Shown here: piece by piece, positions 5,599-27,507 of the stretch | How positions within the stretch are numbered: the first letter of the stretch is position 1 | Layout: each line of letters starts with the position of its first letter | IMG/VR virus record: IMGVR_UViG_3300042109_000082 | Coordinates: 1-36,171 of that record | From: a virus | Lineage: Duplodnaviria > Caudoviricetes | Length of the DNA: 36,171 bases | Reading direction: 5' to 3' (one strand) | The notes under the pieces: model-generated | Told to the model about the DNA's origin: nothing | The model's input: only the letters and a program-made list of their open reading frames with translations | Databases searched by the model: none | Program-made: the position numbers and the translations under genes

Positions 5599-5825
5599 TT
5601 GCCGTCCTCCTTGTAGCAGTCCCAGCCTCGCTCTAATGCAACATCCTTTTCCGTCTTTACCCAACTCCGGAGCAACCAGCACACTTTTCGCCTCGCCTCA
5701 TCGCGCTCCCGCCGCGCCTCGCGCAATGCTCGCCAGAGCGCAGCCTCAACCGCGTGTCGCGTGGCCGGGATCTTGACCTGTGATGTTTCGTCGGTCGCTG
5801 GATCTGTCGGTTGATGATTTGTCAC
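5595..5825 (-). CDS. Hypothetical protein, ERDEAR...WDCY paralog 1
   Basis: GTG start at 5825 overlapping the upstream stop; ERDEARR...GWDCYKEDGK. Confidence 0.75.
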   Translation of the reverse strand: MTNHQPTDPATDETSQVKIPATRHAVEAALWRALREARRERDEARRKVCWLLRSWVKTEKDVALERGWDCYKEDGK

Positions 5826-5826
5826 G
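5794..5826. repeat. 33-bp direct repeat, copy 1
   Basis: gtcgctggatctgtcggttgatgatttgtcacg; 31/33 identical to 6356..6388, with a 24-bp perfect core. Confidence 0.95.
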
Positions 5827-6349
5827 TCGTGCTCCACAAACTGTCTTCTGTATCGGACAATTCAGGCAAAACGATTGGTGCGTAACTGTTATTCAAAATT
5901 CTTGACCATCGACCTTTCAAACACGTCGGCTGATCGGTTCTTCGCTGCTTGCCATCCGTGTGTTTCCATTGGCCTCCGCCAGCAGCACCCTCATAAGTCC
6001 AACCGCTCGCTTTCAAACTGATGCCGCTTTCTGTTTCCAACACATACGTCTGGATTCGCAGATAACCCATTTCTTTTCCAATGCGTGCTGCAGCTGCGTA
6101 CAGTGCACTGCAAGCATTTGCTTGCCCATTGGTTACTAGCCGTGTGACTTCAAGGACTTCTCGCGGCAGGCCAGCAAGTCTCGCTACTGGCCTACCAACG
6201 ATTGCTGCGCCACATACTGTCCCATCTTCAGTAACAACTCCAATGCTGAAACGGTGTCCCTGACACGGCTTGTGATGGCGATGCCATGCCGATACGACAA
6301 GATTTGCTTCCGTCAATTCCAATGGAATCACCTTGAGGCGGGATTGCAT
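5822..6349 (-). CDS. XF1762-family (Mom-related, GNAT-like) protein
   Basis: EANLVVSAWHRHHKP..GHRFSIG...CGAAIVGRPVAR...LEVTRL...NACSALY...MGYLRIQTY....ESGISLKASGW signature; visibly more AT-rich than its neighbours. Confidence 0.85.
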   Translation of the reverse strand: MQSRLKVIPLELTEANLVVSAWHRHHKPCQGHRFSIGVVTEDGTVCGAAIVGRPVARLAGLPREVLEVTRLVTNGQANACSALYAAAARIGKEMGYLRIQTYVLETESGISLKASGWTYEGAAGGGQWKHTDGKQRRTDQPTCLKGRWSRILNNSYAPIVLPELSDTEDSLWSTT

Positions 6350-6355
6350 GTGCTA

Positions 6356-6388
6356 GTCGCTTGGTCTGTCGGTTGATGATTTGTCACG
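6356..6388. repeat. 33-bp direct repeat, copy 2
   Basis: gtcgcttggtctgtcggttgatgatttgtcacg; encodes the same MTNHQPTD start as copy 1. Confidence 0.95.
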
Positions 6389-6842: not shown

Positions 6843-7615
6843 GGTGTCTCCACCGGGTCAAGGTAGCGGCCCTGCCCAAGCCAAGTCGCCGGGTGCGGGA
6901 TGAACTTCGGGTCGGTGAGCTTGTGCTGCTTGGCGAGCGCGTCGATCCGCTCCTCCATCCAGATGAGGGCATCGTGCGGCTCGTCATGCTCGAAGTCCTC
7001 CATGACCTCGCGCACGGCCTTGTCGAGCAGCGTCATAGCCTTCTTCCTGCCCACCTTGCGCGGGAACCTCTGCCACAGCGCGTCGAGCGCGGCCTGCGGG
7101 ATCGTGGCTCGCCTGTTCGGGCTCGGATCATCTGACGGTGAAACGGGCTCGACGGCGGAGCCGTTGAGCGTATCTCTGACTTTGCTTTCGCTGTCGGTTC
7201 CGATCTCGCTTTCGATTTCGTTATCGCTTTCGTTTTCGATGGCATCGTTCTGCATTGCTGCCGCATTGCGTCCGCTATGCCACCGCATTGCTGCGGCATT
7301 GCGAGCCTGCTTGCGCTTCCGGTCGCCTGCCGCAAGGCTCTTTGCCCGGATCTCCTCGCAGCGGGGATTCCGAAGCAGCCCGTCCGGGCCGAGGATGAAC
7401 TTGCGCTTGATGCGATCCCAATGCGCGACCGTTCCCGGCGCGATCTCCTCCAGCACTTGCGGGTCGGCATTTAGACCGCCGTTGCTGTACTGCTCGCAGA
7501 GCAGATACAGATACGCGAGCGCAGCTTCAGCGGGCCACCCCCTCGTAGACCACGCGAAGCGTTGGTAGTAGAACGGCATGAAACCCATCGCGCCGCTCTC
7601 GGTTTGTACACTCAC
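6839..7615 (-). CDS. Replication initiator (DUF1376/YdaU-like N-terminus, replisome-organiser-like C-terminus)
   Basis: FMPFY...AYLYLLCEQY..GGL..D N-terminus; LWQRFPRKVGRKKA and KFIPHPATWLGQGRY C-terminal motifs; CAGGAGG SD. Confidence 0.85.
   Translation of the reverse strand: MSVQTESGAMGFMPFYYQRFAWSTRGWPAEAALAYLYLLCEQYSNGGLNADPQVLEEIAPGTVAHWDRIKRKFILGPDGLLRNPRCEEIRAKSLAAGDRKRKQARNAAAMRWHSGRNAAAMQNDAIENESDNEIESEIGTDSESKVRDTLNGSAVEPVSPSDDPSPNRRATIPQAALDALWQRFPRKVGRKKAMTLLDKAVREVMEDFEHDEPHDALIWMEERIDALAKQHKLTDPKFIPHPATWLGQGRYLDPVETP
7205..7303. other. Putative replication origin (iteron-like array inside the initiator gene)
   Basis: GCATTGC at 7252, 7263, 7285, 7296 and degenerate GCTATGC at 7274 (exact 11-bp period), next to a T-rich 6-bp-period tract (TTCGAT/TTCGTT/ATCGCT) at 7205..7240. 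Confidence 0.65.
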
Positions 7616-8875: not shown

Positions 8876-8958
8876 TGTGGTGTCCTTTCGGTTGGGTGTC
8901 TCGCAAGCCGCCCCGGCTTGCATGGGTGAACTGTAACCCATATCGGCGCAGACGCAAG
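8876..8958 (-). promoter_or_regulatory. Early promoter PL2 plus leader (hairpin, GAGACACC, SD)
   Basis: TTGCGT-16-TACAGT with GCCGATA in the spacer, then GCAAGCC-GGGGC-GGCTTGC hairpin, GAGACACC and GAAAGGA; near copy of 10287..10367. Confidence 0.75.
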
Positions 8959-9000
8959 GCTTTCTTATAGATTTCTTCTAGGATTCTTCAGATACCCAAT

Positions 9001-9052
9001 AACCCCTAGCCGGGGAGGGACTTGCGTCAACCTCCCCGGCCTTCCGGGGGTT
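9001..9052 (-). terminator. Long hairpin with GCAA tetraloop immediately after the ERF stop
   Basis: AACCCC..GCCGGGGAGG.(TT)GAC-GCAA-GTC-CCTCCCCGGC..GGGGTT, followed by ATT. Confidence 0.6.
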
Positions 9053-9990
9053 TAGAACGGGATCTCGTCCTCGGCTGGCACGGTCGCCGCCGCTGGCTGC
9101 TCCGATTGTACCGCAGTCCGCAGGCCGTACAGCGTCCAGCCGTATTGGCCCTCCTGCACGAAGGCTTCCACGGTGTCGCCGCCCATCGCGTCCTGCGCTG
9201 CCTGCATGAGAGCCTGATCGAAGCACGAGCACCATTGCTCGCCCGATCCGGTGTCGAACAGGATCGGCCAGCGGTTTCCGCCCTTCGCCGTGGGCTTGCC
9301 CTGCCCGACCTTGACCACCTTCAATCCCTGCCGCCATGAGCAGTCCTTCGCGGGCCGGGATGCCATGACCTCGCCAAACGCGCTAGGAGCCGCCGTGGCG
9401 GGTTCCTGCGCCTTGGCCGGGGTCTGGGTCGCCTGCGGGGCCGGAATCGACCGTGGCGCATCCTGCGCGGTCTGGCGGGGTGCCGGAGCGTTTCCGCTAG
9501 AGTTGGCCGTAGGTGTAGCGGAATTGCTCCGCGCCGGGGCCGGGGTGGCCCGCTTGGGCTGGTACTTGGAATCATCCTGCTTATCCATTTCGTTCTCGTC
9601 CTCGCGCGGGACGAGCAGCAAGTCGCGCAGGTAGTAGCCCATGCTGGCGGTCAAAGCACCAGCCATCGCCTTGTCGATTGGCTGCTGGCCGCGCGGCACG
9701 GCGACCCACGCGACCTCATCGGTGACGCTTTCGCCGCTACCCGCGTGGGTCAAGATGAACTGGCTTGTGACCAGCCCGCCGCCCTCCGGCGTTCCATCGA
9801 ACTTCCATCCCGCGCGGCGCAGAGTCAACCCAGCACCGTGCAGTACCTCGCGGCAAGCCGCGATCATCGTTTCGCTGCTGGTGTAGGCGTACCCGTAGGT
9901 TCCGCCCTTGAATTGCGAATCCTTCCCGACGCTGGGGAGGGCGCGTTGCGCCGCCAGAAGGGCGGTCGCTAGTGTCTCGGTCTTGGTCAT
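9052..9990 (-). CDS. ERF-family single-strand annealing recombinase with SSB-like acidic tail
   Basis: LATALLAAQ...VGKDS...YAY...L.H.GSGES...AMAGALT...Y.L..LL.V..ED; Pro/Ala linker; C-terminus EDEIPF; CAGGAG SD; start re-called at 9990. Confidence 0.85.
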   Translation of the reverse strand: MTKTETLATALLAAQRALPSVGKDSQFKGGTYGYAYTSSETMIAACREVLHGAGLTLRRAGWKFDGTPEGGGLVTSQFILTHAGSGESVTDEVAWVAVPRGQQPIDKAMAGALTASMGYYLRDLLLVPREDENEMDKQDDSKYQPKRATPAPARSNSATPTANSSGNAPAPRQTAQDAPRSIPAPQATQTPAKAQEPATAAPSAFGEVMASRPAKDCSWRQGLKVVKVGQGKPTAKGGNRWPILFDTGSGEQWCSCFDQALMQAAQDAMGGDTVEAFVQEGQYGWTLYGLRTAVQSEQPAAATVPAEDEIPF

Positions 9991-10058
9991 GGTGTCTCGT
10001 TTCTCCTGCAAACGGTGCAGGCCGTCCCGCCCCCGGAGGGGCGGTGGGGCCGGAGCCG

Positions 10059-10286
10059 TCAGAGCCATCCGATGATGTTGCAATGAAGTGTCACCGTGTA
10101 ATCCCGGTTCTCCTCCACGCGCTGGTTGCGATAGGTTCGCGCTGCGTCCTCGCAGTCTGTTCGGAACACAACTTCTTCGTTTCCGTACGAGTCGCAGGCA
10201 ATCACCCACCACGCTGCACGACCCAAAATCGTAGTGCATCGAATCTCGGTCTTGTAGCCACCTTGAATCACGGTTGCGGTCTTCAT
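10059..10286 (-). CDS. Hypothetical protein (first gene after promoter PL1)
   Basis: ORF track; GAAAGGAAA SD. Confidence 0.75.
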   Translation of the reverse strand: MKTATVIQGGYKTEIRCTTILGRAAWWVIACDSYGNEEVVFRTDCEDAARTYRNQRVEENRDYTVTLHCNIIGWL

Positions 10287-10367
10287 TGTTGTTTCCTTTC
10301 GCTTGGGTGTCTCGTCAGCCGCCCCGGCTGACGGGTGAACTCTACCTACTATCGGCTTGAGCGCAAG
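10287..10367 (-). promoter_or_regulatory. Early promoter PL1 plus leader (hairpin, GAGACACC, SD)
   Basis: TTGCGC-16-TAGAGT with GCCGATA in the spacer, then CGTCAGCC-GGGGC-GGCTGACG hairpin, GAGACACC and GAAAGGA. Confidence 0.75.
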
Positions 10368-10386
10368 AACCCTTCAGCCATATTTC

Positions 10387-10493
10387 CACATTTCGTGCAA
10401 ATAAATACGGGCTTGCATATTCAACAGTCCATAGAATATTTCACATTCTGTCTAGATTCTTTGTTCTATGGACTTGCAATCGGTCGAAATGTG
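10387..10493. repeat. Nested inverted repeats in the AT-rich divergent control region
   Basis: AGTCCATAGAA (10426..10436) / TTCTATGGACT (10464..10474) and CACATTTCG (10387..10395) / CGAAATGTG (10485..10493). Confidence 0.75.
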
Positions 10494-10561
10494 ATCATAC
10501 TTGACCGCGTGGTCGGGGCGACCACCCGAACCCGCCGGACGCGGGCGACAAGGAGACACCC
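10473..10561 (+). promoter_or_regulatory. Early rightward promoter PR plus leader
   Basis: TTGCAA-16-CATACT with GTCGAAA in the spacer, then GTGGTC-GGGGC-GACCAC hairpin and AAGGAGACACCCATG. Confidence 0.7.
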
Positions 10562-11684: not shown

Positions 11685-11692
11685 GAGACACC

Positions 11693-12819: not shown

Positions 12820-12835
12820 GCCGCTACAATCCACC

Positions 12836-12916
12836 CGCACGGGGTCGCCCCCCAATTCATCCCGTGCGAAGGTGTCTCGCCCCGGTGGCCCTCGCGGCTG
12901 CCGGGGCTTTTCGTTT
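12836..12916 (+). ncRNA. Candidate trans-acting antisense small RNA
   Basis: TACAAT at 12825..12830; hairpin CGCACGGG/CCCGTGCG with a C-rich loop (CGCCCCCC); unpaired linker AAGGTGTCTC; terminator hairpin with U tail. Loop and linker are complementary to repeated early-leader motifs. Confidence 0.65.
12879..12916 (+). terminator. Intrinsic terminator
   Basis: GCCCCGGTGGCC-CTCGC-GGCTGCCGGGGC-TTTTCGTTT; G-U pairs valid on the + strand. Confidence 0.85.
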
Positions 12917-12928
12917 AGGCTACCGCGC

Positions 12929-13222
12929 ATGGCAAGGATGCCCCGACCCAAACCTCCCCCCGACCTCTACCGCGCACTCGAGGCCGTAGGCGACCTCCTG
13001 CGCGAGCGCGAGATGCCCGACCTCGCAGGCGATGTCGAGGCCGTCGTAGACGCGCTGCGCTCCATGCTTGAGCTGACCCGCTACGGCGACGCGCTGTGGG
13101 GGGACGAGATACGAAACCTCCTCTGCATCCGGCACGCGCTTCGGCCCCGGCGTGGAACCGTGGACGATCCCATGCGCGGTCGCCGCAAGGCACGCCGCAT
13201 CCGCAGGCGGTCGTTCAGATAG
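12929..13222 (+). CDS. Hypothetical protein with Arg-rich C-terminus, possibly leaderless
   Basis: MARMPRPKPPPDLY...RGRRKARRIRRRSFR; TAGGCT 7 nt before the ATG and no SD there. Confidence 0.65.
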   Translation: MARMPRPKPPPDLYRALEAVGDLLREREMPDLAGDVEAVVDALRSMLELTRYGDALWGDEIRNLLCIRHALRPRRGTVDDPMRGRRKARRIRRRSFR

Positions 13223-26451: not shown

Positions 26452-27507
26452 TCAGGTCGTGCAGTCCGCGAGAGCAAGGCCGGACAGCGGAGCGGTGATG
26501 ACCACCGCGCTGTTGTCGGTCACGCTGCCACGAATGCGGCGGTTCCACGGATCTTCCAGCGTCTCCACGGTCATGTCCTCGTAGGCGAAGACCGAGCAAG
26601 TGCTGAAGGACGGGCCTTCGTTGCCGACCAGTCCACCCGGACGGCTGACGAAGTACATTCCGCTCCCGTAGAAGAAGCCACGGGTGTTCGCGCCGCCCTT
26701 GCGGGTCGAAACGCGCACCGTGTCATCCACCACCACGCCGCCGAGGCCGAAGAGGTTCTGCGGCAGGCCGTACGCGGCGAAGGTCGTGTCACCCTTCAGG
26801 AAGTTCAGAGCGTGCGGGGTGTTCTTGATGTAATCGCGAACGCCCTCGCTACCTGCAAGACGACGCGCAGTGGTCGGGTTGACAATCAGGTAGATGTCCT
26901 GCGGGCCGACCACGCCAACGGTGTTCTGAACAATCTTCTCAATCGCGGTACGAATGATCGTCTGAACATTATCGCCGCTGCTGGTGATGGGAACCGCGCC
27001 ACCCGTCAGAGCCGTGGTGTTCGCAAAGTAGTTCACACCCGTAGTCCACGGCTGCGTGATCGTCTCGCTACCAGCCGACACGCCTGCGGTCGTGATGAGG
27101 TTCGCCATGCGGTACGCACGGTGAGTCATCATCTTGGCAGCAGCAATGCGAGCGTGGCTAGCCACGACATCCCACTGCGCCTGCCGCGCAGTCTCCTGCG
27201 GGATGGCGAAAGACGACTGGAACCGCTGCGCCGTCCACTGCGTCCAGTCGAGGTCGCTGTTGATGCCAGTCGGGCGATCCTCGCCGAGCGGCCACTGGAG
27301 ATCCTGCGTGTTGACCACGCGAGCAGTCTCCTCCTCGTCGATGCGGAGGTAGTAGCCGCTCATCTGCTGCACAGGCACGATCTGCGCGTACTGGGTGATC
27401 GGGAAGCGGTTCACCGAGCGGGTGAACTCGACCTGAATCTGACCAGTCGCCGCCGAGAAGGTGGGGATGAAGGTGTTCAGCCCACCGCCAATTCCGTATT
27501 CAGCCAT
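26452..27507 (-). CDS. Major capsid protein
   Basis: 351 aa, after protease/scaffold and decoration genes, strong AAGGAG SD, followed by a terminator; HK97-like features (YAQIVPV...GYY; YGLP..LFG). Confidence 0.85.
   Translation of the reverse strand: MAEYGIGGGLNTFIPTFSAATGQIQVEFTRSVNRFPITQYAQIVPVQQMSGYYLRIDEEETARVVNTQDLQWPLGEDRPTGINSDLDWTQWTAQRFQSSFAIPQETARQAQWDVVASHARIAAAKMMTHRAYRMANLITTAGVSAGSETITQPWTTGVNYFANTTALTGGAVPITSSGDNVQTIIRTAIEKIVQNTVGVVGPQDIYLIVNPTTARRLAGSEGVRDYIKNTPHALNFLKGDTTFAAYGLPQNLFGLGGVVVDDTVRVSTRKGGANTRGFFYGSGMYFVSRPGGLVGNEGPSFSTCSVFAYEDMTVETLEDPWNRRIRGSVTDNSAVVITAPLSGLALADCTT

Follow-up and report, generated by a model that had tools for sequence, protein, structure and literature searches.

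Three predicted early promoters in a tailed-phage genome are each followed by a hairpin whose stem differs between sites while its loop reads GGGGC every time. What is this loop kept for, and what would recognize it? We addressed the question in the window, which is the entire virus record of 36,171 nt, and in relatives of this phage.

Family searches with the 52 ORFs found tailed-phage genes for terminase, Mu-like portal, neck and tape-measure proteins on the minus strand. The leftward early block has family matches to ERF, Gp157, a replication protein, RusA and a Mom-like gene, and the rightward block consists of small genes. In cultured phages, the terminase reached just 23–27% identity among the 12 matches listed, and the protein encoded at 26452 had no match. 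A 6.5-kb contig in a bacterial MAG (L099) was dropped as a host clue: it matches a capsid-region gene without host flank. Most of its length aligns to the head genes of the window at about 80% identity, and it is probably a binned phage fragment. A direct repeat of about 24 bp, located by eye at about 5803–5826 and 6365–6388, brackets the lower-GC Mom-like gene (5822–6349), which suggests an insertion.

Predicted early promoters and their leader hairpins

Two leftward and one rightward early-type promoters are predicted. P1 (minus strand, 8930–8957) has the -35 box TTGCGT at 8957–8952 and the -10 box TACAGT at 8935–8930, separated by a 16-nt spacer that holds CCGA, and this layout recurs in relatives. 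P2 (minus strand, 10339–10366) is composed of TTGCGC (10366–10361) and TAGAGT (10344–10339), and P3 (plus strand, 10474–10501) of TTGCAA (10474–10479) and CATACT (10496–10501). All three -10 boxes are of the sigma-70 type and stand 16 nt from a TTGCRN -35 box; a generic promoter scan missed these promoters. A CCGA or TCGA word, which may be a contact for a host or phage factor, occurs at a similar spot in the 16–17-nt promoter spacers of P1–P3 and of the examined groups of relatives, including groups with different small RNAs.

The GGGGC hairpins of the original prediction were all recovered: GCAAGCC-GGGGC-GGCTTGC (minus strand, 8903–8921) behind P1, CGTCAGCC-GGGGC-GGCTGACG (minus strand, 10313–10333) behind P2 and GTGGTC-GGGGC-GACCAC (plus strand, 10509–10525) behind P3, the last with a second small hairpin on its 3′ side (10531–10545, plus strand). 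They had been placed 5–8 nt from the -10 box, and the distances measured are 8, 5 and 7 nt for P1, P2 and P3. Since the usual spacing between a -10 box and the start site would make them the first bases of the transcripts, the hairpins are predicted to lie at the 5′ ends of early transcripts. The stems are perfect in all three copies, as had been noted, but the P1 and P2 leader cassettes are paralogues (81% identity across 75 nt), which leaves two independent stems in the window instead of three. GGGGC within a perfect stem of at least 4 bp is found at these three sites only, and CGGGGCG is not over-represented in the window (11 seen, 18.4 expected). In the window alone the hairpin coincidence is of modest rarity, with 5 of 300 dinucleotide shuffles showing three perfect stems of at least 6 bp that share one loop anywhere in the genome. 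Other G+C-rich hairpins lie at 9010–9045, just behind the ERF gene, and at 10028–10055, just before the ERF ribosome-binding site; the latter carries GGGGGCG inside its stem.

Relatives with different stems around the same core were first found by a pattern search, from which eight matches without family proteins (L024, L027, L029–L031, L035–L037) were left out as chance. We compared 14 hand-picked leaders anchored on the loop, so that loop invariance in this set holds by construction. Double changes were found in five of the eight stem pairs, the seven inner pairs are kept in 14 of 14 leaders, and the covariation score lies above 500 of 500 shuffles and above all slid controls. G-U pairs are also present in the stems of relatives. 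Automatic stem picking mis-anchored several leader rows, and our statements on stems rest on other leader alignments. The stem covariation in relatives settles the leader hairpin as real, and the proposal of a selected RNA structure is supported.

The same comparison bears on whether the repeats act as DNA instead, be it as operators or in the way of N4-like hairpin promoters. Perfect inverted repeats beside promoters could be read in this way. However, their arms vary around a fixed centre, which is the opposite of an operator, and the sense strand allows G-T pairs. The repeats lie downstream of ordinary -35 and -10 boxes; the family search gave no match to a virion RNA polymerase among the 52 ORFs. 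We consider a role as DNA highly improbable.

A repeated tag and a complementary, putative small RNA

The octamer GAGACACC, here called the tag, is the commonest 8-mer in the 32 nt ahead of 53 automatically called starts (6 of 53), and occurs in eight copies genome-wide against about 1.0–1.4 expected. Of the starts listed by hand, 6 of 27 early ones have the tag ahead of them and none of the 27 late ones does; six of the hand-listed starts are a few bases off. At P1 (8895–8902, minus strand) the tag adjoins the 3′ side of the hairpin and is followed by a distinct Shine-Dalgarno (SD) sequence, AAAGGA, and by ATG 8875, and at P2 (10306–10313, minus strand) it likewise stands behind the hairpin, upstream of AAAGGA and ATG 10286. 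Both copies lie about 20–27 nt upstream of the AUG, where the ribosome footprint ends, and their separation from the SD in these leftward cassettes indicates that the tag is more than an SD. The copy at P3 (10553–10560, plus strand) overlaps the SD AGGAG just before ATG 10562, whereas those at the gene for the ERF ssDNA-annealing protein (9990–9052; tag 9991–9998, minus strand) and at a 66-aa gene of no known family (tag 11685–11692, plus strand; ATG 11693) abut the start codon. In these three cases the tag covers the SD or spacer region, and the ERF and 11693 genes carry it without a 5′ hairpin. Against a tag read by an RNA stands that A/C-rich spacers after GGA are common in this phage family. 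The sixth copy (6843–6850, minus strand) abuts ATG 6842 and is a doubtful RNA target, since it also encodes the end of the upstream replication gene and is kept in group C of the relatives, where the RNA seed differs.

A leftward cassette of promoter, hairpin and tag occurs once or twice per genome (window 8876–8990 and 10286–10400; also L004, L005, L006, L011, L012 and L015). Such cassettes follow each other in tandem or flank the ERF gene, ahead of differing small cargo genes, which suggests shuffling among these genes similar to that of the PeSL cassettes of T4-like phages.

A complement to both the tag and the loop was found in one element on the plus strand (12837–12912), a predicted small RNA of about 76 nt composed of a hairpin, a linker and a terminator. 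The -10-like hexamer TACAAT (12825–12830) precedes it with no clear -35 box, which places the predicted 5′ end at about 12837; a similar hexamer is present at the same place in relatives. Hairpin 1 (12837–12867) has a 13-nt loop (12846–12858) that begins CGCCCCCC and complements the leader loops. The single-stranded linker GGTGTCTC (12871–12878), with its core GGUGUCUC, complements the tag, and an intrinsic-terminator-like stem of 12 bp with a U-run (12879–12912) ends the RNA. With the 5′ end set at 12837, the linker is predicted to be unpaired. Co-folding, with the linker paired to the tag, gained 13–15 kcal/mol for five of the tagged leaders; for the 6842 leader and an imperfect gp157 site the gain was about 10 kcal/mol.

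From these sequence features we infer that the element is transcribed as a small RNA, which could double as the 3′ end of the P3 operon. Contigs from RNA runs were low-depth assemblies with small word shares and are possibly DNA. Rfam returned only two chance eukaryote or archaeal matches for the window at E ≤ 1, both elsewhere in the window, and no match for seven relative loci at the gathering threshold.

Joint change of the putative small RNA and the leaders across relatives

Directly behind the small RNA lies the gene for a 97-aa helical protein of no known family (12929–13222, plus strand), possibly made by read-through of the small RNA terminator, and we used it as a handle to collect relatives. 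After loci at contig ends and duplicates between collections had been left out, all 40 examined loci with sequence upstream of the 12929 gene showed a short terminator-ended element there (31 + 9). Group A comprises 19 loci with the linker GGUGUCUC, and group B 12 loci (GC 43–49%) with the linker ACCUAGU and a CGCCCCC loop in a covarying stem. This loop is present in 31 of 31 group A and B RNAs, again on covarying stems. A covariance model of group A, built from 17 RNAs and lacking most of hairpin 1, found the group B RNA only at E = 0.57 and in 1 of 11 group B loci; the homology of the two groups therefore rests on position and layout.

The tags follow the linkers. Together with GGUGUCUC, GAGACAC is found in 24 of 27 leaders, with the other three one base off, and ACUAGG in 2 of 27; together with ACCUAGU, ACUAGG is found in 18 of 18 leaders and GAGACAC in four. 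These counts cover 25 loci after two spurious window rows had been dropped, and the promoter pattern missed a few leaders. The group B seed has only six Watson-Crick pairs plus flanking G-U and G-C pairs. Further partners are found in the smaller groups: the shorter RNA of group C (five loci) has UGUUCUCC and its leaders GGAGAACA, with neither loop motif; in group D (one locus) the RNA has GUGUCUCU and the leader AGAGACAC; in group E (two loci) UUUGGUGUCUC and GAGACACCAAA match over 11 bp; and for the UGGUCUCC of the group F RNA (one locus) the partner is GGAGACCA at the 11693 orthologue, with only 6 bp at the first leader. A last viral scan found no further group. The records of groups C, D and F, some of them incomplete, share the early region and gave no match to the window terminase. 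The group E terminase is 70% identical to that of the window, and the match holds one TAG.

We assessed the specificity of these matches in two ways. When the longest complements were cross-tabulated, the cognate combination was best or tied for groups A, C and E and nearly so for D, which has one longer non-cognate match, while B and F could not be told from background. A blind genome-wide ranking singled out the RNA in three of seven genomes (A, D and E), with 0.12% of 18,060 windows scoring as high as the RNA in the window genome, 0.7% in D and 0.6% in E. No such rank was reached in C, in F or in either B genome; the seeds are short, and the crude scripted gene caller missed some starts. 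The joint changes of seed and tag are few when counted as lineage events (a handful instead of dozens), and most of the protein tree lacks resolution. With this proviso, the predicted contact between GAGACACC and the RNA linker, a site that the original prediction did not name, is the stronger one and clearly covaries.

The contact proposed originally, a kissing interaction between the GGGGC loop and a small RNA, appears less well supported than the tag pairing. The leader loop does have a complement in the loop of the 12837–12912 element, and in group B leaders GGG(G)CG is kept in the loops of stems unrelated to those of group A (GC about 60% in A, about 46% in B). Leader loops read GGGGC, GGGC or GGGGCGUUCU, and there are exceptions: GGGTC in 1 of 27 leaders of group A (the GAGACACC group), a degenerate rightward hairpin in the noisy contig L057 and one ATGGCG variant among group B leaders. 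Group C has neither loop motif, and the leader loops of D and F are without complement in their own RNA. In group E, the RNA loop ACCCC faces GGGGU in the rightward leader, and the two seeds stand in swapped order. This double change is a single event, seen in two near-identical genomes and in the rightward leader only. The loops of three of the four hairpins in group D and F leaders (L127, L122) contain GCGCAAT, possibly another recognition system.

Could the RNA pair with the tag only, with the 5′ hairpins being stabilizing or protein-bound and their loop kept by cassette descent or by a protein? The uncomplemented loops of D and F would be expected then, as would the hairpin-free tags of the ERF and 11693 genes; P1 and P2 are duplicates, and the leader loop can close one extra pair to give a G-GGG-C triloop. 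However, GGG(G)CG is kept in the unrelated A and B stems exactly where the RNA has CGCCCCC, and neither the ACCCC/GGGGU double change of group E nor the joint loss of both loop motifs in group C is expected from tag pairing alone. We therefore regard pairing with the tag only as rather unlikely and favour an RNA that would use both sites.

The collected loci also bear on the proposal that the hairpins are boxB-like antitermination sites with the Arg-rich 12929 protein as ligand. A fixed loop on variable stems near promoters would suit boxB, and the protein of the window has an Arg-rich C-terminus and adjoins the RNA in all groups, the latter by construction of the search. The loop of lambdoid boxB is a GNRA-like pentaloop (GNRNA), which the GGGGC loop does not resemble, and none of 30 boxA-like matches (at most one mismatch to the consensus) falls within the three leaders. 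The invariant core of the protein (L-T-x-x-G-D-x-L-x-x-D-E-x-R...H...R-G) stays throughout, but in groups B, C, D and F its Arg-rich tail is reduced or missing; the tail is thus not conserved, and its presence does not go with that of the leader loop. The family has just eight representatives at 50% clustering; the AF2 model is helical with a pTM of 0.46, a PDB fold search gave no match, an Atlas search was blank, and the host search found no relative in GTDB genomes. A boxB site would also leave the covariation of tag and linker unexplained. A boxB-like site with this protein as ligand is not supported, and we judge antitermination of this kind improbable.

Proposed mechanism and comparison with known systems

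What the genomes themselves display are promoter-like motifs, hairpins and two complementarities that change jointly among relatives. Because tag and linker change together, several early genes are probably silenced at once by a single small RNA. Our preferred reading, which we hold with some confidence, is that a trans-acting, two-site antisense RNA of about 76 nt blocks translation of several tagged early genes, and the hairpins are likely the target side of this uncatalogued two-seed phage RNA. The RNA (12837–12912) would be transcribed from the plus strand. Its loop CGCCCC would kiss the leader loop GGG(G)CG, after which linker and tag would form a duplex of 8–9 bp. The two sites follow the same 5′-to-3′ order in RNA and leader of groups A and B, so that the kissing contact and the duplex between the two stem bases could, judged by geometry, form simultaneously. 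The RNA-tag duplex would then inhibit translation initiation of the tagged genes, a step proposed because the seed covers the SD or spacer in most groups.

The same two-site pairing could instead act on transcription or RNA stability, by premature termination as in P4 CI or by decay, or serve immunity in a carrier state, in place of a translation block within a lytic switch from early to late genes. The tags of P1 and P2 lie upstream of the SD, and the RNA may also form the P3 operon end. Furthermore, two reports describe P4 CI as terminating by two-site pairing (PMC4825925) and C4 RNA as serving immunity (PMC5320573). Against this, the rightward leaders, and likewise those of groups B, C and D, have their SD covered by the seed, no terminator-like site was found in the P1–P3 leaders, whose hairpins have no U-run, and the family search gave no match to integrase, repressor or antirepressor families among the 52 ORFs. 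Taken together, an effect other than a translation block seems unlikely to us. For the preferred translation block, the likeliest purpose, given the lack of integrase or repressor matches, is to damp early genes or shut them off in a coordinated way, and immunity in a carrier state may be another.

More speculative is a re-programmable master switch, in which an RNA of about 50–85 nt with two exchangeable, group-specific seeds would control the whole early regulon in trans and the cassettes would recruit new genes. We offer this idea tentatively and think it more doubtful than the translation block itself. If true, mobile promoter-hairpin-tag cassettes would put any newly acquired gene under RNA control at once, and phages without a repressor would have, in RNA alone, their equivalent of repressor-operator immunity groups.

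Among known systems, the predicted small RNA works like the C4 RNA of P1 without being a member of its family, as it has no Rfam match and a different fold. C4 of P1/P7 is described in PMC5320573 as a phage RNA of about 77 nt with two short single-stranded segments, one complementary to a site partly over the ribosome-binding site (RBS) and one to a site upstream, and with a target-binding loop that differs between phages; PMC8198154 likewise gives a two-segment action with one site over the RBS. The likeness to C4 (RF01695) lies in this pair of unpaired segments with complements at the RBS and upstream of it, here seen by sequence and covariation. The RF01695 model is unmatched here, however. 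C4 consists of three stem-loops cut by RNase P, whereas two hairpins and a linker with an own terminator are predicted here, and it controls the icd-ant antirepressor message, whereas the predicted targets here are several leaders on two divergent operons.

The CI RNA of P4 (seqA/seqC) also pairs with two short sites and keeps the replication genes of the phage itself down, according to PMC4825925. Its targets flank the RNA on one transcript, in contrast to the window, where no plus-strand GAGACACC lies downstream of the RNA (beyond 12878), the predicted targets are up to 6 kb off and on both strands, and termination is not indicated. The PeSLs of T4-like phages resemble the leftward cassettes: PMC4122927 describes them as repeated early-promoter/stem-loop cassettes before interchangeable small genes. 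They are presented there as terminator/promoter composites, whereas in the cassettes of the window the hairpin follows the -10 box, has no U-run and is joined by predicted RNA target sites.

Phage antisense RNAs that act on phage genes mostly control one message, often in cis, as summarized in the pertinent section of a review (PMC12197685), and the literature searched, which covers few subscription journals, yielded no published phage RNA acting on several leaders in this way. One short RNA with two seeds over several divergent early operons would differ from these usual single-message RNAs, and the at least five seed types would constitute natural compensatory pairs. Finally, the start-associated sequence (SAS) of Cluster K mycobacteriophages is an asymmetric repeat a few bases before the starts of non-structural genes only, and PMC3203893 leaves open whether RNA or protein binds it. 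GAGACACC is similarly asymmetric and stands ahead of early, not late, starts. Its sequence is unrelated to SAS, but here a complementary RNA is present and covaries with it, which offers a testable answer to what may bind such start-associated repeats.
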